A DNA stretch of 64,000 nucleotides from the IMG/VR virus record IMGVR_UViG_3300025885_000003. The stretch is one strand, 5' to 3'. The DNA is from an uncultured virus (IMG/VR IMGVR_UViG_3300025885_000003). Its lineage: Duplodnaviria > Heunggongvirae > Uroviricota > Caudoviricetes. The notes below the pieces were generated by a model. That model had not been told where the DNA came from. It ran no database searches and saw only the letters and a list, made by a program, of their open reading frames with translations. The position numbers were made by a program, and so were the translations under genes. Positions 3,290 to 52,614 of the stretch are shown here, piece after piece; position 1 is the stretch's first letter; each line of letters begins with the position of its first letter.

Positions 3290-3718
3290 CTAGACGATGA
3301 TCTTGCCTCGGGTATCCCACTTCTTGAGTGGCCCAGCAAGGAGTGCGTAAAAGAAATCCTTGTTCAACTTGACTACGCCATCCGTTGTGTCAGTCATATA
3401 CAGAAGTCCGTCATCCATCGGCTCGCCCGTGACAGGATCAATTCGAGCGAAAGTATCGAGAATGACCTTCCAGATCGCTGGGTCTACGTTGTTCGCGACC
3501 AACTGGAACTGGCGGGTCGGATCAAAACCGCCCGCCTTCGTAAACTTCGTCAGCTTATCCATTGACTGAACGATGTCTTGTCGCTCACGTACGCCAGCCA
3601 TCTTCTTTCGCATGTCTGGCGACCGCAATTCGAGATCGTCACTCAGTAGCGCCGACTCTAGAACGCTGAAGAGGTGCGCGTTGCTACGGCGGATTCGATT
3701 GATCTTAACGTCGCTCAC
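3290..3718 (-). CDS. Hypothetical protein (post-capsid, possibly virion-associated)
   Basis: 142-aa ORF with GGAGGT SD in the structural operon. Confidence 0.6.
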   Translation of the reverse strand: MSDVKINRIRRSNAHLFSVLESALLSDDLELRSPDMRKKMAGVRERQDIVQSMDKLTKFTKAGGFDPTRQFQLVANNVDPAIWKVILDTFARIDPVTGEPMDDGLLYMTDTTDGVVKLNKDFFYALLAGPLKKWDTRGKIIV

Positions 3719-5652: not shown

Positions 5653-7241
5653 TTACGTGACCGCGCTCTTGTTATTGACCGCGAGCAGTCTACCATTGGC
5701 CTTCTCATTCAGCACTTCCAGCGTCACTTCGCCCACAACGACACCGGCAACCGAGTCACCCCGGCGACCAATGAGGTTATGCTGCATAGGACGCAGCCAT
5801 GCCAAACGATTGATGCTCCGCTGCAAGAAGAACATCTGACCACCCGTATTGGTGGCAGAAGCAGTTGCAGTCGAGGTATTGCTGGACTCGGGAACCCAAC
5901 GGTCGAGCACGATCTGGATCAGACCGAAGTCCGAGTCGTAGAAGTCGATACCCGAGATGAGCCGCTTGTCCACAGAAGCGATGTTCCGATTCTGTTGCGG
6001 TAGCGTGAACGCGCTGACCTGACGCTTGACCTTCGGCGACACGTACACCTGCTCAGGATTACCGCCCGAGCTATAGATGGTGTTGAGCATGTCGTTGAAG
6101 TCCTGCGAAGACAGGACACCGTCGTTGCTAGCCCCGCCACCAGTGACATACGCCGTATTGGTGGTGATGAAGGACTGGAAGCCACGCAGAACGCGAGCCG
6201 TGCCAGAAGCGCCGGTCGCGGTCGTCAGAGCACCGAACACGATTCGTTCGAGCTTGATGGCGAGCCGCTTGACAGCCTTCTGAATCTGGTAGGCATAGAC
6301 ATCCTTGAAGCCCGCAGCCGCGATGGCCCGCTGGGTCTCGGAGACGCCGATGTCCTGACGCAGAATCATGGTCACGTTGAACACGCGGTCAGGGACGGTC
6401 GTACCGTCCAGAGACCAGTCGGCACCTTCCACAGCGCCCGAGGTACCGATACCGGTATCGTCGAGGCCAGTGAAGAGGGTGTCCGTGAGCCACTGGTGGT
6501 AAACGTGCTGACAAGGAACCTTCGGAGCCTGACTCGTCCAGGGCGTATCCCCTGCTACTTACGTAGTTGGACTGTATCATCACCTCGGTTCAATCGTTGA
6601 ATCTTCTCTATGATCCGCAGCCGCCGTTCCCTGGCACTCTGCCGTCTGGTTAATGTCCGATAGACAAGAGCCAGTCTGGCTTGCTGCTGCTTCACTTTTA
6701 AGAAGGGGACGATCAATTTCAGGAACCAATCGGTTGTTTCACCGGTTGGATGCCATTCATAACAGGTCCGATTACCGGGCCTGGATCGTTCCTGAGTCCA
6801 TCCTCCGAAGGTTTCTTCAAACCAGCGGATAAGTGTCCGATTGGTATTCGTCACTCCGATTCGGAGTTCCGGATATTTTTCGTGGCTATGGACTGTTCCA
6901 CCGACATGGCCTTCGCCGTCGAAGATACCAGCAGCATAAGCGATGTCTGTTCGATTGATTTTACGAGGGAGTAGCGTGCTAGTCTCTGAGGATGACATAA
7001 TGTCCTTTCCTGCGGGTTGCCCGCTGCGGTCGATTTTCACTGGCCACTGGCCGAGTACGAACGCTCTAGGGTGTTCTCGCATATAGCTACTTGTTCATTA
7101 GCGGATCGCTCCGCTATGCCCCAGGATTATCTAGGGGGATACGTTGGTGATCTGGTCGAGCAAGTCTTCCTTGTTGACGCCTACACCGGGGCTCACACCG
7201 AAAAGATATGCACCAAAGTCGAATGTGCTCGAACCGGGCAT
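5653..7241 (-). CDS. Major capsid protein (SU10/DUF5309-like), two exons 7241-7133 and 6551-5653, 335 aa spliced
   Basis: Exon 1 MPGSSTF…NKEDLLDQITNVSP plus exon 2 (W)DTPWTSQ…HQWLTDTL…EG.D…YDSDFG…IVLDRW…GEVTLEVLNEKA. The joined length of 1008 nt is in frame; the gene follows the scaffold. Confidence 0.88.
6552..7132 (-). mobile_element. Group I intron (581 nt) in the major capsid gene
   Basis: 5' exon ends in U. P1 is CCCU^AG/CUGGGG with a U.G pair. P3 is GUAGC/GCUAC. P7 elements CAGAGACUA (6988-6980) and GAUACAGUCC (6578-6569). Terminal G at 6552. P10 is AUCCU/GGGAU. Splicing removes an in-frame TAG. Confidence 0.9.
6555..6998 (-). CDS. Intron-encoded LAGLIDADG homing endonuclease
   Basis: AYAAGIFDGEG, VTNTN, FGG, YEW, PFLKVKQQQA; lies mostly between the P7 halves; SD AGGA. 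Confidence 0.88.
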   Translation of the reverse strand: MSSSETSTLLPRKINRTDIAYAAGIFDGEGHVGGTVHSHEKYPELRIGVTNTNRTLIRWFEETFGGWTQERSRPGNRTCYEWHPTGETTDWFLKLIVPFLKVKQQQARLALVYRTLTRRQSARERRLRIIEKIQRLNRGDDTVQLRK

Positions 7242-7277: not shown

Positions 7278-8450
7278 TTAGCTACCGAAGATTGGGTGAT
7301 TGAGAATGTCCTTGAAAACGAGACTACGCCACTTCTCGCCGTGTCCCTGGCGCATGAGGTCCGCAGCAGAGTCGTATTCGCCCTGTGTCGGACCGACGTT
7401 AGCGTTCTCGTGGACACCATGAACGCCTCCGGCTGTACTTGCGAGGATGCCCGCATCCTTGAGGGCTGCCTCCCGAGCTTCTCGCCGGACTTGATCTGCG
7501 GCCGTCAGTTGAATCTCCTTGACGACATTCTCTGGCGTCGCAGGGGCTGGCACAAAGGGCGCGGGTGCCGGAGCACTCTTGATCCCGTGGACGGACGAGA
7601 ATTCCCGCCACGCGAACACCATCGCCTGTTCATGCAAGTCCTTCTCGATAAGCGCAGAGACCACCTGAGCAATCTCAGGATTGGTCTTAGTGAAGAGCCC
7701 CATCTCGGACGTGAAATTCATGGACTCAGGATACTTCTGAGACATGAACTCATCGACCTTGTCCCAACGCTCCTTGTTGGCCTGGGCAACCGATTCCCTG
7801 GCATCCTGCTCTTCACGCGCAGCCTGACGTGCAGCACTGGTCGTATGCTCGCTGATCGCATCAACCAATTGCACCAGTCTCTCCCCGTCAATATTTCCAT
7901 CTTGCAAGCTGCTGAGCACCTCTGTCAGCTTGGCACTGTACTTCGGAGCGTCCCCTCGCGTGGGGGCTTCCGGAGTAAGCACTTGGGGAGCCGTAACCTG
8001 CGGAGCTACGGGCGTTCGACGGGCCTCTTCCAGGAGCTTCGACAAACGGTCGTTCTCCACGAGAGTGGCTTTCGTCATGTTCATAGCATGACCGACACCC
8101 TTAACAAACTCACCAAGGGAGTTGTACTTACCGAGGTACTTACCATCGGCTCCCTTATACTCCTCCGGGTTAAACCCGAGCAGTTGAGTTGCAATTTCTG
8201 GTGTCAGACTTGCCGGGGCAACCTGAGCCGGAGGCGTAACGAGTGGTTCGTTAGCCGGGGCCGCTGCCGGGGGCTCTCCACCACCAGCACCTTCAGGAGC
8301 GGGTTGTCCGCCTCTGGCCTGCTGGTCGATAAGGAGGTTGTTCGCTTCGGACCATCCAGCATTGCCCATCAACTGCTCGACGGACGCGCCGATAGTATCG
8401 GCAAGCTGGCGGTTCAGTTCCATTTCATTTTCTGGGCGCTTGAACTCCAT
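7278..8450 (-). CDS. Capsid scaffolding protein
   Basis: Pro/Ala/Glu-rich with coiled coils and YLGKY motif; sits between portal and capsid. Confidence 0.65.
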   Translation of the reverse strand: MEFKRPENEMELNRQLADTIGASVEQLMGNAGWSEANNLLIDQQARGGQPAPEGAGGGEPPAAAPANEPLVTPPAQVAPASLTPEIATQLLGFNPEEYKGADGKYLGKYNSLGEFVKGVGHAMNMTKATLVENDRLSKLLEEARRTPVAPQVTAPQVLTPEAPTRGDAPKYSAKLTEVLSSLQDGNIDGERLVQLVDAISEHTTSAARQAAREEQDARESVAQANKERWDKVDEFMSQKYPESMNFTSEMGLFTKTNPEIAQVVSALIEKDLHEQAMVFAWREFSSVHGIKSAPAPAPFVPAPATPENVVKEIQLTAADQVRREAREAALKDAGILASTAGGVHGVHENANVGPTQGEYDSAADLMRQGHGEKWRSLVFKDILNHPIFGS

Positions 8451-9100: not shown

Positions 9101-11080
9101 CTAGGCGACGTTGGACATCATGCCTGCGAAGCCCATGTTGCTGTTCTGCCCACCGCCAGGGAGCCGCCCGAGGGGAGCGCCCATCGCACTCTGCGAACTG
9201 GGAGCACCAAGCTGCCCGTTGACGATCTGGCCAGAAGTTGGCACCATGTTGAGCGGGATACCGCCCATCGCTGGATTCACCATGCCCTGCATCGCAGGCT
9301 GCATGAAGATTTCATTGATGTTCGGAACCTCGAACTCACGGAAGATGCCTCGCCAGAAGTTGATAACGTTGATCTGGCCCCAGATTTGCGGGAAACCAGA
9401 CATTGCCTGGAGCAACTGGACCAGCGTCTGCTGCTTCATTCCCTTCGACAGGGCTGCCGAAGAACCACACGCACGAGCCGCGTAGTTCGGAACCATGTCG
9501 TATTCATCGAGATGTTCCCTCGTGGCGCTGATTGGCATGCCAGTGACGGGATCGATGACGGCAGAGTCGCCGAGAATGAGAACTTCGACGGGAGTGTCCA
9601 GGAACTGCTTATCTAGGGCGACCATCATGTTCGCCAGCGGTTCGAGGTACATCTCCTCGTAGATGCGTGATTCGAGCAGGAGCCGGTTGCCAGAAGCCTC
9701 ACGCCGCCCGATGAATTCGCGCGCCGTCTGACGATCCTGACCACCTAGACCCTGAACTGTGTCTTCCCCGATACCGGAGCCCATTTCGGCAAACTCGCGC
9801 ATCTGGGCGATCTTTTCGGTTGCGGTGAGCATGCCGTTAAGGTTAGCCTGAAGCGGAGCGACGACCGCACCGGGGTTTCCATCGACAGGGATGAATCGAC
9901 CGGGTCGAGCATACAGGTTTCGAGTGTTGAGATTTGCTGAACGGTCATAGAACCACATCGGGTCGATCACAAGATCAGCAGCATCGAGTGACTGGTTGAT
10001 GTACCGATTGCCCGTGATCTGAATCTTCTCCATGACCTCGGCCTTGCCGGGAGCATAGAAGTAGTGCGGATCGGGCGTTGGCGAGAATGCGGTGAAAGGT
10101 GCCAGACCGTGCCAGAAGGGGTTGGGACGGAACCGGAATAGATAGCGGCCATTCGCCACTGTGATGACAAACATACCTGGGCGACCAGAGCCGGACTTGT
10201 ACTTCGCTGGAATCAGTTCGCTGGGCACGTAGCCCCACATCTCCAGAATTTCGACTGGGCGTGAGTACTTGTCCATGAACCGGACAGTCGAATCGTCCAT
10301 ACCTGTGCGTGTTGCGAAACGCCGAACAGAGGCTTCGTCCGTAAAATGGTCCCAGCCTACTCCACCCTCGCGCTCCATCCTAGCCACTTCAGCCTTGTCG
10401 AAGATTGCGTCTTCGCCTGTGGAGAGATAGCGGATATCATCAAGGTCGAGGAAGTATCGCCGGATCATCCACGGCATCTCGCGGATGTTGTTCTTGTTGG
10501 GGCAGGGGAAGAAGTCGAGGAGATCGACATTCTCGACCGTGGGGCCGTCGAACATCGTGACGGGACCCTTCTTGATCATCTTCACGACCTTGCCTGAGAG
10601 AGGCAACCGGTCGAGAGTCTCGATCATGCGGTCTTCACGCTTGCGCTTCCAGCCGACCTGGGACACGGAGACACCGTAGAGATCAGCGGAGACGAAGTTG
10701 TGAACCTGCTTGAGGAACATGTCGTCATCCTTCATCTGCGCTGAGATGAGGGCCTCGCGCTTGCGCGCGGTGGGCATGTCGTCCGGGCCGTAACCGAGGA
10801 ACGACACGATGGGCCACATGTTCAGGGAAGTCGAAGCCTTGCGAGCCGCGTCCGCCCAGATGGCGGAATAGATTAACGGGATATGAACATTATTTTTGTG
10901 AGGATGAAACCTACCTGTCCATGTGCCTCGCCACAAGTCATACCGTCTCGGTAGACTTTGGCGTATCCCCATGTGATGATTCTCTGATAGTTTCTTGCGC
11001 GAGACCACCATGTCGATGACTTGCAGTTTCTGCTGCTCATCGCCGATTTCACGTGTGATCAAAAAATTACCACCGAGCAC
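9101..11080 (-). CDS. Portal protein (P22/SU10-like)
   Basis: 659 aa; LYGVSVSQVGW, DFFPCP, VEILEMWG, NPFWHGLAPF, TAREF and a Gln/Met/Gly-rich tail; GGAGG SD plus GTG. Confidence 0.88.
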   Translation of the reverse strand: MLGGNFLITREIGDEQQKLQVIDMVVSRKKLSENHHMGIRQSLPRRYDLWRGTWTGRFHPHKNNVHIPLIYSAIWADAARKASTSLNMWPIVSFLGYGPDDMPTARKREALISAQMKDDDMFLKQVHNFVSADLYGVSVSQVGWKRKREDRMIETLDRLPLSGKVVKMIKKGPVTMFDGPTVENVDLLDFFPCPNKNNIREMPWMIRRYFLDLDDIRYLSTGEDAIFDKAEVARMEREGGVGWDHFTDEASVRRFATRTGMDDSTVRFMDKYSRPVEILEMWGYVPSELIPAKYKSGSGRPGMFVITVANGRYLFRFRPNPFWHGLAPFTAFSPTPDPHYFYAPGKAEVMEKIQITGNRYINQSLDAADLVIDPMWFYDRSANLNTRNLYARPGRFIPVDGNPGAVVAPLQANLNGMLTATEKIAQMREFAEMGSGIGEDTVQGLGGQDRQTAREFIGRREASGNRLLLESRIYEEMYLEPLANMMVALDKQFLDTPVEVLILGDSAVIDPVTGMPISATREHLDEYDMVPNYAARACGSSAALSKGMKQQTLVQLLQAMSGFPQIWGQINVINFWRGIFREFEVPNINEIFMQPAMQGMVNPAMGGIPLNMVPTSGQIVNGQLGAPSSQSAMGAPLGRLPGGGQNSNMGFAGMMSNVA

Positions 11081-11500
11081 TTACGCCTCCTGACCACGTA
11101 AATACATGGCCGCACCAATTAGCAGGGATGCTTTATCCCGCATGAGTCCTAGTGCTTGGTTACACCGTTGACAGAGTAACCCTCGGACATGCCCTGTTTG
11201 ATGATCATGGTCAATGTGCGTTGTCCGTCCGGGTTTTAACTGGTCTTCACAGATACCGCAAAGTCCGCGTTGCCTTTCCCACAAAACATCGTACTGTTCA
11301 GAAGTTAATCCATAGCGCGCAATCTGATATCGGCGGTACCAAGTTCGAACCTTTTCCCGATTCCGTTCCGCGTACTGCTTTACGCGCTTTGTTTCACACT
11401 GTTTACACACACTGGTACGCCCTCTAGGCCGACGCCGGTCAAAAGTGAAATCACTCAGTGACCGTTCCTGGTTGCATCGAGTACAGCATTGCGTATCCAT
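11081..11500 (-). CDS. Endonuclease VII-like HNH homing endonuclease
   Basis: CTRC…CKQC; RYGLT; QRGLCGIC; HIDHDHQTGHVRGLLCQRCNQALG. Confidence 0.88.
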   Translation of the reverse strand: MDTQCCTRCNQERSLSDFTFDRRRPRGRTSVCKQCETKRVKQYAERNREKVRTWYRRYQIARYGLTSEQYDVLWERQRGLCGICEDQLKPGRTTHIDHDHQTGHVRGLLCQRCNQALGLMRDKASLLIGAAMYLRGQEA

Positions 11501-12072
11501 TGAGGAATCTCCAGTCTAAGAAGGCTGCCGGTATTGTTCATCACACTACCTGTTTTACAGATATGAATGAAAAGGTCCCGAGTTAGCCGTACGTCATGGG
11601 CACAGTAGAGAAATAATTCCGCGAAGCGGCCATCTTTTACTAGGTCCGGCGCATGCGCCCCAGAGCCGCTTTTACCTCGGCCGAAAGCCCGTCTGCACAC
11701 CCGGTCGAGTTTGAATTCCCCACGTTTACCAACGATCCCCTTTTGTGCGTTCGTGCGCGCGATGAGAGTATAGAGATCAATGTGCTCGCGTAACTTGAGC
11801 CGCCGTCCCCATACGCCTTCAATACACGGGATATCAAAGCGGAGAGTGTTATAGCCGATGACAACATCAGCGCCTTCCAGATGTGCAACCGCTGCTTTGA
11901 GCGATAGAGGATTGTCATCGTACATGTACAACCAGTCTTCCGAGAGGTCGTACACGCAGATCGCTGAAATACCTCCGTCCCCATTCCGCAGACGCATCCA
12001 TCCGTAGTCTCGATCCGGTGACAATTGGCTTGCATGAAGTCGTGTCTCCAGGTCGAAGATGACAATGCGCAT
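11455..12072 (-). CDS. RNase H-like / DEDD 3'-5' exonuclease (YprB-like)
   Basis: FDLET, IGYNTLRFDIP, HIDLY, KLD, YCAHDVRLT. Confidence 0.8.
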   Translation of the reverse strand: MRIVIFDLETRLHASQLSPDRDYGWMRLRNGDGGISAICVYDLSEDWLYMYDDNPLSLKAAVAHLEGADVVIGYNTLRFDIPCIEGVWGRRLKLREHIDLYTLIARTNAQKGIVGKRGEFKLDRVCRRAFGRGKSGSGAHAPDLVKDGRFAELFLYCAHDVRLTRDLFIHICKTGSVMNNTGSLLRLEIPQWIRNAVLDATRNGH

Positions 12073-12083
12073 AATGCGCCTTT

Positions 12084-13142
12084 CTATTCGTCTTCTTTAT
12101 CTCCTGGCTTCTTGACTGCCGGAGCCGGCGAGGGACGAACTTCATCTGGGAAACGCCACCGAGCATCGCGCTCTTCCGTGGCGAGAGAACTAAACGCGAT
12201 ACCGGCTGAACCAGGATTGACCATGTTGAAGTCATACGCGGTGAAAGTCGGTGGAGTAAAGATAGCAGAAAGCGTGTGTGGTACCTGTACGTTCGTAAAT
12301 GTATATGAAGTTACTGGCCCGACGGAGACACCATCGATAAGTACCTCACGAAGAGTACAACCTGAGTTAGGCGTAATTGTGAAAGCTTGATTATGCCCAA
12401 TCAAGACATCTGTCGTTGAGGGGGAAACTACCCCAGGACCCGTTACTGATACCGTAATCATAGCCACGGGTTGTACTTCAGTACCAGACCCCGTCATTGT
12501 GACACTTGCGCCACCGGACTTAGCTGTTGCTTTCGGATGTGTTGCACTACCAGACATGGTAGTCGCAGCACCACCAGCTTTGGCTGTGGCCTTCGGATGC
12601 GTTGAGTCACCGGACATCGTAACTGAAGCACCACCAGCCCGCGGATAATCAGTAGAGGCAGATTCAGCAGTACCAAAGCTAAAGTAAGAAACATCTACTG
12701 TTCCAGCATTTCCCGGCTGTGGGACAAAGATAAGCCACATCTTCGGTGATCCCGTGCCACTTCCAACGTTGGCATAATCACCCGTACAATGTACGCTGAA
12801 ATCGACAAACGATGTCGTTAGCGCATTCGCATCAATATTCGCAATAACAGCAGATCGACCGTTATCCGCAAAAATTCGGACGGCCATGATCGACCCAGTA
12901 TTCGGGGCTGTCGCAGAACGACGCATCCGCAAATTCACGTAAAGGCCAGTTGGATTTACGTTAGGATCGATAGAACCCGAGGCGGTCCACGACGTTCGGT
13001 CCGTGACGGCCGCAGCAGCGGTCGCATACTTTGCATCATCGTAGTTGTCGAGACAGTCAAAAATCTCAGACGCACCATGTGCCGTCCACGTACCAATGGC
13101 ATCATCACCGAGTTCTGGGCTGGCTGGTTTGACAGTAGCCAT
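12084..13142 (-). CDS. Virion structural/decoration or fibre protein with a C-terminal Ig/B-repeat-like domain
   Basis: Thr/Ser/Gly-rich beta sequence, three ~20-aa repeats, C-terminal QAFTITPNSG…VLIDG…SYTFTNV…HTLSAIF. Confidence 0.6.
   Translation of the reverse strand: MATVKPASPELGDDAIGTWTAHGASEIFDCLDNYDDAKYATAAAAVTDRTSWTASGSIDPNVNPTGLYVNLRMRRSATAPNTGSIMAVRIFADNGRSAVIANIDANALTTSFVDFSVHCTGDYANVGSGTGSPKMWLIFVPQPGNAGTVDVSYFSFGTAESASTDYPRAGGASVTMSGDSTHPKATAKAGGAATTMSGSATHPKATAKSGGASVTMTGSGTEVQPVAMITVSVTGPGVVSPSTTDVLIGHNQAFTITPNSGCTLREVLIDGVSVGPVTSYTFTNVQVPHTLSAIFTPPTFTAYDFNMVNPGSAGIAFSSLATEERDARWRFPDEVRPSPAPAVKKPGDKEDE
12487..12646 (-). repeat. 60-nt-period coding tandem repeat (GGASVTMSG..THPKATAK), about 2.7 copies
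   Basis: Visible in the translation of 12084..13142. Confidence 0.75.
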
Positions 13143-14038: not shown

Positions 14039-15961
14039 CTATACAGGTTGGAATGGAGGAAGCCACTCATCACTAGGACCATGTCCTGGCCCCATCTGTG
14101 CGGCATACTCACGATCGGTGTCGCTAATCTGCGTTGCCAGTGCGTGTCCGAAGATACGCTCATCATCCTTAATGAAAGCCGACTCCGGCCCCATCGGGAC
14201 TGATCCCTCGTCGGCCGCGACATTGCCCATGCCGTAGACTGGCTTGCGCCAGAGTCCCGTGGTCTTACCGGGAAGTCGCTCAACGAAGACATCAACACCT
14301 GCATCTGCGTAGTCATCGTGGTCTACTGCGTCGATGCGGAGCATCTGGTTGAACATCGTCATCGCAGGCTTTGGAATGTACCAATGCTTGCACAGACGTT
14401 TCGGCATGCCTTGTGCGCAATCGCATGAGGGGCGATGAAGGAATACGCGGACGAAGCCTTCGGCCCAGTAACCTGCTCCAGTACGAATTCGCTGCCGCTT
14501 CTTCGTTCCCTGCCGGTTCAGCGCGTAGTACGGAATGTTGAAACCTGCACCACGCAGGACGGCTTTGATCTGGTCCGGATAGACACCCTGGTGACCACCG
14601 GTCTCGGCGTCATCCGTGATGCCCTTGATCATGATGCCCCGCTTACGCAGGGACACGCAGACCTTGATCAGTTCATCGTGGAACGTGTCCGCACGCCACT
14701 CATTCGAGCCGCGCAGGAGGTCCGTTTCCAGATAGATGAAACCGTTCGGACGCTCGTCATGGAGCCAGACTACGATAGTCGAGTAGTCGCCCTTGCCGAT
14801 ACTTTCCTTCTTCTTGAAGGCACAATCGATGTGGATCGACGCCGTCATGGCTGGCACAAGGAAGTTCAGGTCCGAGAAGTCAGTGAAGCAGTCCCGAAGC
14901 TGCCATTCTAGAAGGGGCGTGTGTTCGCCCGCGCCTGGGTTGTTCTGCTGCTGGCAAGCGTAATCTTCCGGATCGCGCCGCTTATGCTCGATGATCTTCT
15001 TGATGTTGTAGACTTCAGGCAGCGTAGGCGTACCGTGGCCAGGATAGCCAGGACACTCGATGGCCATGTCTTCAGTCTGCCAGAAGAATACGTGCCAGGG
15101 ACCCTGTCCGAGTTCGACTTCCTCGAAGAGCGCCATATTAGGAATTGGCATCCCAGACCAGGATGCGATACCTTCGCGCTTGAGATGTCGCCCTGCCACG
15201 TCATCGTCGCCGTAGCGCGTGAGTGTAAGCATGAGCAGACCGTTCGGACTAAGCGCGTTATAGCACGAGTCCACGGATGTATGGACGTTCCGCATGTAGG
15301 CTTCACGTCCGTCGCGGATTTTCGTCGCTAGAATCGGATCGTCTACATCGTGAACGTCATGGTGATAGCCCGTCATACCGATCTCAACACCCGTCGTATC
15401 GAACGACGGCTCAGAGAGGTTAGTAGACTGGCGATAGCCGTGGTGAAGGAACTCGTCGTTCCATTTGCGCGTGGGCTCTCTCCAGTTACCGTAGAGCCAC
15501 GTAAACCAGGAGTCGCGATCCTGCCCCGAGATGACCTTCTGGATCGAGGCCAGAATGTCCTTGGAGAACGGATGCGTGCCAGACATGAACAGCGTGGACA
15601 TGTCGGGATCGTCCAGGTGCAGCCAAAGCATGGCCGACTTGGACGTAATGACGGTCTTGCCAAAGCCACGAGGGAGGATGACCGCGATGTAATAGCGATC
15701 TGTTGATCCCTCGCGCCGCTGTTTAGTCCATTCTAGGAGGTGATGCTGGAGCCAGGAGATGAATTTCTTGTGGAACCGGTCCTGGAACCACTGGGACTTG
15801 CCGGGACGCTTGGCGAAATAGGCGTCAGTTCCCCAGCACTTCCGTACAAACCAGTAGAGGGACTCGGGGTGAGTCGCCGTCTCGCCGTTCTCATCATGCC
15901 AGCGACCTGGAGCGCAAATTGCCGTCCAGATGTCACGTTCGGCTTCCTGGTTCCACTTCAT
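14039..15961 (-). CDS. terL: Terminase large subunit
   Basis: Walker A ILPRGFGKT; TGYHHD..DVDD; LTRYGDDD; YACQQQNNP; nuclease IDCAF…DYS…HDDYADA. Confidence 0.93.
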   Translation of the reverse strand: MKWNQEAERDIWTAICAPGRWHDENGETATHPESLYWFVRKCWGTDAYFAKRPGKSQWFQDRFHKKFISWLQHHLLEWTKQRREGSTDRYYIAVILPRGFGKTVITSKSAMLWLHLDDPDMSTLFMSGTHPFSKDILASIQKVISGQDRDSWFTWLYGNWREPTRKWNDEFLHHGYRQSTNLSEPSFDTTGVEIGMTGYHHDVHDVDDPILATKIRDGREAYMRNVHTSVDSCYNALSPNGLLMLTLTRYGDDDVAGRHLKREGIASWSGMPIPNMALFEEVELGQGPWHVFFWQTEDMAIECPGYPGHGTPTLPEVYNIKKIIEHKRRDPEDYACQQQNNPGAGEHTPLLEWQLRDCFTDFSDLNFLVPAMTASIHIDCAFKKKESIGKGDYSTIVVWLHDERPNGFIYLETDLLRGSNEWRADTFHDELIKVCVSLRKRGIMIKGITDDAETGGHQGVYPDQIKAVLRGAGFNIPYYALNRQGTKKRQRIRTGAGYWAEGFVRVFLHRPSCDCAQGMPKRLCKHWYIPKPAMTMFNQMLRIDAVDHDDYADAGVDVFVERLPGKTTGLWRKPVYGMGNVAADEGSVPMGPESAFIKDDERIFGHALATQISDTDREYAAQMGPGHGPSDEWLPPFQPV

Positions 15962-51152: not shown

Positions 51153-51278
51153 ATGGCCAGAACGATTGCACAGAAGTACGCGACAGGAAACTGTACTCAA
51201 AGAATGCTCACCGGAAAATACGGCGTTGCTCAACCAACGATCAGTAAACTTGTGCTGCGGCAGCGGAGGAACACATGA
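51153..51278 (+). pseudogene. 41-aa HTH remnant typical of HNH endonuclease C-termini
   Basis: YATGNCTQRML..KYGVAQPTISKLV; GAGGT SD. Confidence 0.45.
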
Positions 51279-51856
51279 GAATTATCGTCCTAGACGTAGA
51301 AACGGGTGGCTTCGATTCCACTACTGACTCGATCCTTTCCCTCGGCGCGGTAGTACTGGACGACGACGGTACCATCGTTGACTCGTTCCACACGCTGATC
51401 CAGGAAGAGGAAATCAACGCCAACGAGGGTGCGCTGAAGGTCAATGGTTTGACCATCGAACGACTCCGTGAGCAGGGCTTGTCGCCTCGGATGACGGTGA
51501 CGTTGTTTACTGAGTTCATACGGCGCAATAGCCTTCCCTCGCGGCCGACTCTTGCTGGACACAACATCGCGGGATTCGATATGGGCTTCATCCGGCGTCT
51601 GTATCGTCTGGCTGGCGCGCGGATGTCGTTCGATTATCATGTGCTCGATACCATGTCGGCTGCTCTGCTGTTGAAGTGGGCGGGCCGGTTGCCGGTAGCG
51701 AACGTGAAGCTGGACACACTGATCAAGCACTTCGATATCGTGGGTCGTGAGGGTGAGGAGCATAACGCACTCGAAGACGCGACGCTTACAGCGAAACTCC
51801 TGGTCGCACTCCGTGATATGTTCACAGTTGGCGCACTTGAGAACAAAACTACCTAG
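51275..51856 (+). CDS. DEDDh 3'-5' exonuclease (DnaQ-like)
   Basis: LDVETGG; GHNI.GFD; LDT; HNALEDA. Confidence 0.92.
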   Translation: MRIIVLDVETGGFDSTTDSILSLGAVVLDDDGTIVDSFHTLIQEEEINANEGALKVNGLTIERLREQGLSPRMTVTLFTEFIRRNSLPSRPTLAGHNIAGFDMGFIRRLYRLAGARMSFDYHVLDTMSAALLLKWAGRLPVANVKLDTLIKHFDIVGREGEEHNALEDATLTAKLLVALRDMFTVGALENKTT

Positions 51857-51964
51857 GAGGTAACTCATGGGTTGTGCAGTTGCAATTGTCGTAGGACTCG
51901 TCTGCGCGTTCCTCTTCATCGAGTTCGTCATGCCACTGTTCTTCCCTGTCCAGTGGCCTTGAGT

Positions 51965-52095
51965 TTGGGTTGACTACGCCCGTGAATCGGGCCTTGCCGC
52001 GAGGCTCTACGGGCTGGTACCGGTTCGCGAGACCGACTGTCGCATAGCATTACGGTGCTAGGGCAGTTCGGAGGAAGAGTAGAGTGTCAACCCAA
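51965..52095 (+). ncRNA. Candidate multi-branched structured RNA
   Basis: 10-bp closing stem and five internal helices, three capped by GCGA, GCGA and UACG tetraloops. Confidence 0.6.
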
Positions 52096-52097
52096 CA

Positions 52098-52146
52098 AAC
52101 ACGAAGCCCCGACTGCCTATCACTAGGCGGCCGGGGCATTTGTGTT
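52098..52146. terminator. Hairpin terminator where the two arms converge (possibly bidirectional)
   Basis: GCCCCG.CTGCCTA-tcac-TAGGCGG.CGGGGC with T-rich flanks on both strands. Confidence 0.65.
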
Positions 52147-52209
52147 GTTACGGATGAACTCGCCCAGGTGACTGGACGGGCTCAGGACTCCTCCCACGAC
52201 GTGGGTGAG

Positions 52210-52614
52210 CTATTTCGATGCAACTCCCTGGAGCTTCTCGACCGTGCGCATACCACCGAGGCCGAGCATTCCAACGAGTAGTGTAGTCAGGAGACTCACG
52301 TCCAGCATGACCATCTTGACTGGGTGCGCAGTCATCTCAGAACCCCACACGACGAGGGGACCTAGAACCATCTGGATAGCCAGAGCCGAACCGCAGACCC
52401 AACCGATAAACGGCCTCCATCCAGACACAAAGATGTTCGGATTCGCTGCCTCGATCTCGTTGATCTTGTTCTGCCCGGCGATGACCGCGAGGTCACCACT
52501 CTGCTCAAGTTCAGCGAGTTTCTGAATCGCTTCAGCCTTAGCCTTGGGATCGGGGATGACCTTGTCGAGAATCTTCGTACCGAAGCCGAGGAGGTCAAGA
52601 AGAGGAAATGGCAT
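52210..52614 (-). CDS. Holin, 3TM (GTA-type)
   Basis: LDKVIPDP; EA…FVSGWRPFIGWVCG; GMLGLGGMRTVEK. Confidence 0.88.
   Translation of the reverse strand: MPFPLLDLLGFGTKILDKVIPDPKAKAEAIQKLAELEQSGDLAVIAGQNKINEIEAANPNIFVSGWRPFIGWVCGSALAIQMVLGPLVVWGSEMTAHPVKMVMLDVSLLTTLLVGMLGLGGMRTVEKLQGVASK

Follow-up and report, generated by a model that had tools for sequence, protein, structure and literature searches.

A candidate discrete structured RNA of no known family in the RNA-cargo slot of an uncultured soil phage

A structured element flanked by a stop codon and a terminator

What is the 131-nt structured element that separates the last stop codon of one gene arm from the terminator in the genome of an uncultured soil phage? 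The element lies in a 64,000-nt stretch of DNA (hereafter called the window), in which two gene arms converge. The 3′ end of the plus-strand arm encodes a DNA polymerase, ThyX, an endolysin, and a DnaQ-like exonuclease (PHROGs assignments), and the minus-strand arm ends with a holin gene. A previous reading, made from the sequence alone, had described the arm that carries the element as the early/replication arm, but this label is not borne out because the same arm also encodes the endolysin. The features relevant to the analysis are listed below, where “slot” denotes the position upstream of the terminator that holds RNA cargo in related phages.

51275..51856, plus strand: DnaQ-like exonuclease gene (phrog_192, E 5.8e-40), which normally marks the upstream side of the slot
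51867..51962, plus strand: predicted 31-codon hydrophobic ORF, from its translation, with a ribosome-binding site at 51856-60
51965..52095, plus strand: candidate stand-alone structured RNA of 131 nt, from folding statistics, helix positions, and slot context
51965..51974, plus strand: 5′ strand of the 10-bp closing stem, which pairs with 52086-95 as a perfect 10-nt inverted repeat
51978..52032, plus strand: 5′ domain with three alternative folds (the hairpins of the sequence-only reading, one long hairpin, or an HDV-type P1-P3-P1.1 arrangement)
52033..52071, plus strand: stable UACG-capped hairpin with most pair probabilities above 0.9, in the P4 position of the HDV-type drawing
52072..52085, plus strand: purine-rich linker lacking cytosine, then strand 52079-85, from the sequence and the helix list
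52086..52095, plus strand: 3′ strand of the closing stem, from the inverted repeat
52096..52149, both directions: two-way intrinsic terminator (hairpin 52106-52137, A-rich lead, U-rich tail)
52210..52614, minus strand: holin gene, last of the opposite arm (phrog_3427, E 3.5e-28)

The element begins 2 nt past the stop codon of the 31-codon ORF and ends 7 nt before the terminator. A 65-codon ORF starting at 52084 was dismissed because it runs across the terminator and its stop codon is altered in a near-identical strain. As the sequence-only reading had held, the terminator is separate from the element: its hairpin is an inverted repeat of its own and folds independently, and similar hairpins are present in related phages. 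A scan for consensus terminators made no call at 52096..52149. The A-rich spacer that precedes the terminator is shared with relatives and is the terminator’s own minus-strand tail; therefore, it was left out of the evidence. We also observed that the UACG hairpin (52033-52039) and the terminator (52109-52115) have a 7-nt word in common, possibly through a small duplication.

Information on the origin of this phage is confined to its environment. A tblastn search of GenBank phages with the polymerase gave no match, and no cultured relative was found. Rhizosphere metagenomes account for the runs with at least half of the words from the region (6 of 11 rows, two of them possible sources). No RNA run is listed among the 11, and contigs from four DNA runs contributed strain alleles and chance pieces only. 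Neither ThyX nor the cluster members gave a useful indication of the host.

Folding statistics and competing internal folds

The element folds more stably than expected from its composition. Among shuffled versions of a 141-nt sequence containing it, 1 of 200 was as stable (z -3.17), and the element ranks fifth when the genome is tiled into 487 windows of 131 nt (z -4.5, with 12 shuffles each), with the terminator tile in first place. A separate test gave z -4.35. The plus strand folds at -58.7 kcal/mol, versus -47.0 kcal/mol for its reverse.

Elsewhere in the window, other strongly folding 131-nt tiles occur at 3495, 5198, 7687, and 18036 (z -4.0 to -5.6, 12 shuffles each), several of them within the capsid and intron region. 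This region includes a group I intron match on the minus strand (6552-7142, 50.9 bits) that has an internal ORF and adjoins a major capsid gene segment (5653-6369).

The helices listed in the sequence-only reading can all be located. These are the 10-bp closing stem, an inner helix at 51978-82/51988-92, a GCGA hairpin at 51996-52005, the pairing of 52006-10 with 52079-83, a second GCGA hairpin at 52021-35, and a helix at 52036-41/52062-67 that encloses an inner hairpin at 52045-60. Both of the purine-rich linkers are present as well. Three tetraloop hairpins do exist, but the UACG loop is closed by a U.G pair rather than by the C-G pair that closes stable UNCG tetraloops. Of 5,000 shuffles, 6 contain three such hairpins together with a closing helix of at least 10 bp, and the same combination turns up in 8 of 12,774 overlapping windows from other parts of the genome, a sample that does not include the element’s own register. 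The pattern is therefore rare, although not unique.

Whether these helices form together as a multi-branched structure is a different matter. That arrangement is computed at -49.7 kcal/mol, about 9 kcal/mol above the minimum of -58.7 kcal/mol, and for its four inner helices the probability of pairing is just 0.01-0.04. The minimum-energy fold instead contains a long hairpin (51981-90/52020-29), and a third fold, also multibranch, reaches -57.7 kcal/mol. Moreover, strand 52079-85 is able to pair with 52004-10. Pair probabilities are mostly above 0.9 in the closing stem and the UACG hairpin alone. According to the energy model, then, these two are the only robust parts of the predicted structure, and the inner architecture is open to several folds.

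Most of the related loci keep tRNAs in the same slot

The position of the element is the main evidence that it is an RNA gene. We examined 26 distinct loci from related phages that have a visible terminator, collected through polymerase, holin, and exonuclease scans; exonuclease homologues do occur upstream of the slot in relatives. At 16 of these loci, ARAGORN identifies plus-strand tRNAs no more than 2 kb upstream of this terminator, often accompanied by other RNAs of no assigned family. Inspection by eye found solely non-tRNA structured elements at seven further loci, and no structured element at the remaining three (L018, L056, and L248). Because these three hold none, the cargo of the slot appears to be optional, with a terminator that works alone. 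The cargo includes permuted T-arm/D-arm elements, RNAs that end in a T-arm, and units closed by stems of 9-13 bp. In the phage studied here, ARAGORN finds no tRNA or tmRNA within the whole window, and the element fills the gap between the 31-codon gene and the terminator, where most relatives keep tRNA genes.

The boundaries of the element also resemble those of other slot units. The first unit begins 0-4 nt past a stop codon in four of nine tRNA-anchored relatives; six further slot starts show the same spacing, but these were chosen by eye and the comparison is circular. At L032, L035, L055, L066, and L072, the last unit is not a tRNA, has a closing stem of 9-13 bp, and ends 2-9 nt before the terminator. 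The closing-stem feature is weak when taken alone, since the same search also yields helices of 7-9 bp at the cargo-free loci L056 and L248.

Several other RNAs were observed at these loci. A tRNA-sized core (~70 nt) ending in ACCA occurs in L024 (7530-7601), L034 (4496-4566), L055 (6317-6387), L069 (13529-13600), and L287 (3390-3459), with 4 of its 17 predicted pairs changed on both sides. In four of the five loci, it is preceded by a hairpin that resembles the first hairpin of T4 rnaD. There is no Rfam match at gathering level to this core in L024 or L034. It makes a stronger case for a new RNA family than the element itself does. Circularly permuted tRNA-like elements, with the T-arm first and the D-arm last, are found in L015 (~11500-11585), L025 (~12320-12405), L028 (~9640-9750), L072 (~7470-7575), L177, and L287 (~3540-3612); in the four records tested, their matches to YrlA are weak and involve the T-arm alone. 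Four more elements of no assigned family are shared by L024, L030, and L031 (T-arm-ended), by L021 and L069, by L015 and L058, and by L019 and L035.

Singleton RNAs with 9-13 bp stems before the terminator are located in L035 (16432-16541), L055 (6470-6631), L066 (14769-14929), L072 (7665-7743), and L032 (18656-18731), and L014 (~15830-15900) has an apparent H-type pseudoknot element between two small ORFs. Furthermore, a predicted micro-ORF of ~15-18 codons ending in Leu-Trp-Trp-x-Arg-Arg adjoins the slot in L014, L058, L069 (13429-13485), L072 (7412-7468), and L217, and appears to be conserved among slot loci.

The element has no match among known RNA families

The claim that the element belongs to no known class is upheld by the covariance models of Rfam 15, none of which matches it at the gathering cut-off. 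The best score is to Mahella-1 on the opposite strand (16.5 bits versus a cut-off of 70.7), and this candidate was rejected because it is far under the cut-off and was not recovered by a single-family search of the near-identical strain G001 (see below). Single-family searches of G001 at an E value of 10 also gave no 5S, T-box, YrlA, group II D5/D6, or HDV-F-prausnitzii match. On these grounds, 5S rRNA or its loop E (RF00001, one record) and group II intron domains 5-6 (RF00029, one record) were rejected. A likeness to “family X” of the relatives was rejected as well.

Of the identities floated in the sequence-only reading, a tRNA-like element fails and a ribozyme is unsupported. ARAGORN makes no call within the element, which has no T-loop consensus; tRNA, tmRNA, and YrlA were rejected in that the T-arm consensus, an acceptor stem with a free CCA, and a model match are all absent. 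Likewise, the element lacks the conserved core motifs of hammerhead, twister, pistol, and hairpin ribozymes and has no Rfam match to them, and the HDV-type drawing discussed below is without the catalytic cytosine. Homology to T4 rnaD and rnaC was also rejected: neither an rnaD profile built from six sequences (T4 and five diverged copies) nor the rnaC sequence has a match in the element, from which the conserved 5′ and 3′ sequence blocks and the CCA end of these RNAs are absent.

One near-identical strain carries the element

The IMG/VR record G001 represents a near-identical strain, with 3.5% differences over 59,570 aligned bases. Its copy of the element has one change in 131 positions, A52094G, which converts a U-A pair of the closing stem to U.G and thus keeps the pairing. 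Divergence nearby is similarly low, with no changes in the small ORF and 1 of 69 positions changed in the spacer after the terminator, whereas 22 of 194 and 18 of 135 third codon positions differ in the flanking genes. Since the small ORF and the spacer are equally quiet, the low divergence of the element may reflect a low-divergence recombination patch. Between 44001 and 58000 of the window, the two strains differ at 0 to 67 positions per 500 nt, a patchwork pointing to recombination.

Searches for more distant homologues used models R1 and R3, which are weak because both derive from two near-identical sequences. Model R1 found no homologue in 28 virus records, in 37 sources, in 10 loci searched with filters off, in 28 of 80 exonuclease loci, or in bacterial genomes from guessed phyla (sets of 5, 151, and 151); one bacterial match (E 0.046) was set aside because it falls in apparent coding sequence. 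Model R3 matched 1 of 29 records, which is the strain itself, and found no homologue in 27 loci; a match at E 0.005 was set aside because it overlaps ORFs.

Searches with blastn returned short chance matches only from GenBank phages (seven records) and no homologue from plasmids (two records). DNA-pattern scans of viral contigs (10, 14, 80 of 102, and 18 loci) and neighbor-gene scans gave nothing beyond G001. No homologue appeared among the matches listed in a scan of genome contigs (80 of more than 120 loci), where the best score, E 0.003, belongs to a pattern-selected locus with scattered identity. In the literature searched, we found no report of the element, and the motifs tried are absent from six supplementary files of PMC10690425, whose 10,006 candidate models could nevertheless include it. 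The absence of homologues is weak evidence given the near-identical pairs behind the models, and given that the closest relatives by polymerase (P0002-P0007, 72-77% identity) are outside the coverage.

Proposed function and alternative explanations

We consider it probable that the element is a discrete small non-coding RNA gene in the RNA-cargo slot of this phage family. The proposal that it is a discrete RNA and not a terminator gains support from the folding statistics, the absence of an Rfam match, and the tRNA and non-coding RNA content of the relatives’ slot, which together fall short of proof. The likeliest identity is that of an independent stable RNA, akin in kind to T4 rnaC and rnaD but not homologous to them. 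The structured element is real and uncatalogued, and as a probable RNA gene it would be of the same kind as the orphan RNAs of phage tRNA clusters, though of no known family.

The element would be transcribed as the final unit of the plus-strand arm message, with the terminator fixing the outer 3′ end of the transcript. Host nucleases would then cut past the stop codon of the small ORF and trim the product back as far as the foot of the closing stem, whose 10 bp could shield both ends and yield a stable RNA of ~130 nt. Our preferred guess as to function, offered tentatively, is that of a trans-acting decoy, an identity also floated in the sequence-only reading: the folded RNA might bind a host RNA-binding or tRNA-targeting defense protein, or a translation component, and so do the job of the tRNAs and tRNA mimics in whose place it stands. 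We infer the decoy role, the processing, and the stability by analogy with the other cargo of the slot, with T4 rnaC and rnaD, and with phage tRNAs reported to counter defenses (PMC10264068 and PMC11555353). Counting against this explanation are the lack of any homologue beyond G001 and the absence of the T-loop or CCA end by which a tRNA mimic would be recognized.

Alternatively, the element could be a cis-acting 3′ untranslated structure that is never released and that either stabilizes the plus-strand message or buffers the clash of converging transcription. Its location, past the final stop codon of the arm and ahead of the terminator, suits this role, and processing signals are not evident in it. 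However, the 3′ end already has the protection of the terminator hairpin, three of the 26 relative loci have no structure by eye, and most hold tRNAs, which act in trans. The antiterminator version of this idea also fails, as the switched fold lies 6.4 kcal/mol above the native one and a duplex of equal strength arises in 8% of 2,000 shuffles. We regard a cis-acting role as unlikely.

A relic of a former cargo RNA that has decayed, or a chance fold in a G+C-rich region, would have no present function. Such an origin would agree with the singleton status of the element in every search, its several competing folds, the equally quiet small ORF and spacer in G001, and the tetraloop-plus-stem pattern in other windows of the genome. 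It is harder to reconcile with a closing stem whose 10 bp are perfect and which fits into the gap from stop codon to terminator, folding z values down to -4.5, and a sole strain difference that keeps pairing, and we judge it decidedly unlikely.

An HDV-type drawing of the core

About a dozen structural templates were tried before an HDV-type fit was obtained. A descriptor search shows that the core of the element fits a nested double pseudoknot with canonical order and adjacency: P1 (51981-87/52023-29), P2 (52005-09/52080-84), P3 (52010-12/52020-22), a 7-nt L3, P1.1 (52014-15/52030-31), and P4 (52033-71). A strict descriptor, composed after the match was seen and allowing J4/2 of up to 9 nt, is fitted by 5 of 20,000 shuffles, and the element is its sole match on the two strands of the window (128 kb). 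The same descriptor has no match in the slots of the 26 relatives. A looser descriptor yields 148 matches in 3.78 Mb, and 25 of the 130 distinct ones have a 7-bp P1; ranked by helix energy, the element is 47th of 130 among these background matches. The nested part of the fold is computed at -46.5 kcal/mol versus the minimum of -58.7 kcal/mol, a cost of 12 kcal/mol of which P2 would return 5 to 9 before any pseudoknot penalty. By these estimates, the HDV-type fold is not energetically favored.

These helices raise the prospect of a self-cleaving ribozyme that cuts after 51980 with a general acid other than cytosine and processes the transcript end as theta ribozymes do. PMC10879173 describes theta ribozymes as HDV-like and associated with tRNAs in phages, but no tRNA lies upstream of the element. 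The catalytic cytosine of J4/2 is absent, with purines only in the 8 nt at 52072-79, and so is the U20.G25 reverse wobble of L3, whose equivalent positions are G52013 and U52018. As false-positive controls, PMC10879173 takes motif versions in which the C is changed to A, G, or U, and PMC13635239 reports loss of activity with C57U and G25A. Because both features are missing and such motifs are treated as false positives, the element was not filed as an HDV-like ribozyme, and we view self-cleavage of this kind as highly improbable.

An additional reading, speculative and on balance unlikely, is that the core is an HDV-type double pseudoknot with an all-purine J4/2 and the outer stem stacked on P2, representing a repurposed delta-ribozyme scaffold. 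Under the same doubtful reading, it might serve as a non-cleaving RNA that binds a ligand or protein (or as a cleaver that uses adenine), cassette-swapped alongside tRNAs. If the drawing holds, it would be a case of the HDV fold being used without its catalytic cytosine.

Finally, there is only a very slight chance that the element is a T-box-like module acting as a tRNA sponge or switch, in which a 7-nt bulge (52015-21) with two possible flanking helices and a match to the T-box bulge consensus would bind uncharged tRNA by pairing with its 3′ end, given a fold at -35.9 versus -58.7 kcal/mol, a lower-helix probability of 0.00, no RF00230 match at E 10, no Stem I, and an estimated ~3% expectation of the 6-letter match in such stretches.

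Comparison with known systems

The preferred reading of the element as a discrete RNA gene can be placed against four known systems. With the T-box antiterminator (RF00230) it shares one 7-nt motif, but it has neither Stem I nor a model match, and the corresponding fold is disfavored. The resemblance to YrlA (RF02553) and other tRNA mimics lies in the permuted T-arm/D-arm elements that relatives hold in the same slot, whereas the element itself lacks the T-loop consensus and gives no match to RF02553. HDV-like and theta ribozymes (RF02682) share with it the same kind of genomic slot and a nested double-pseudoknot connectivity that can be drawn in the element. Unlike them, the element has C-G as its first pair, a longer J4/2, and an extra outer closing stem, and it lacks the catalytic cytosine, the U20.G25 pair, an adjacent tRNA, and an RF02682 match.

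The closest parallels are T4 rnaC and rnaD, the species 1 and 2 stable RNAs (NC_000866, 70908-71046 and 71053-71171), which are annotated as small stable RNAs and whose function PMC9697503 describes as unknown. Like the element, these are structured RNAs of 120-140 nt that have a hairpin resembling a terminator on their downstream side. They differ in that a T-arm forms the end of rnaC and CCA the end of both RNAs, neither of which the element has. They also lie beside a tRNA cluster, whereas the element’s genome has no tRNA and its slot is syntenic with the tRNAs of relatives. For decades, to our knowledge, no function has been known for orphan stable RNAs at phage tRNA clusters such as rnaC and rnaD. 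Here, one fixed slot swaps tRNAs, permuted tRNA mimics, and several RNAs of no assigned family, and in this phage it holds a lone orphan RNA and no tRNA. The element therefore offers a clean test of whether orphan slot RNAs are functional stand-ins, for example as counter-defense decoys.
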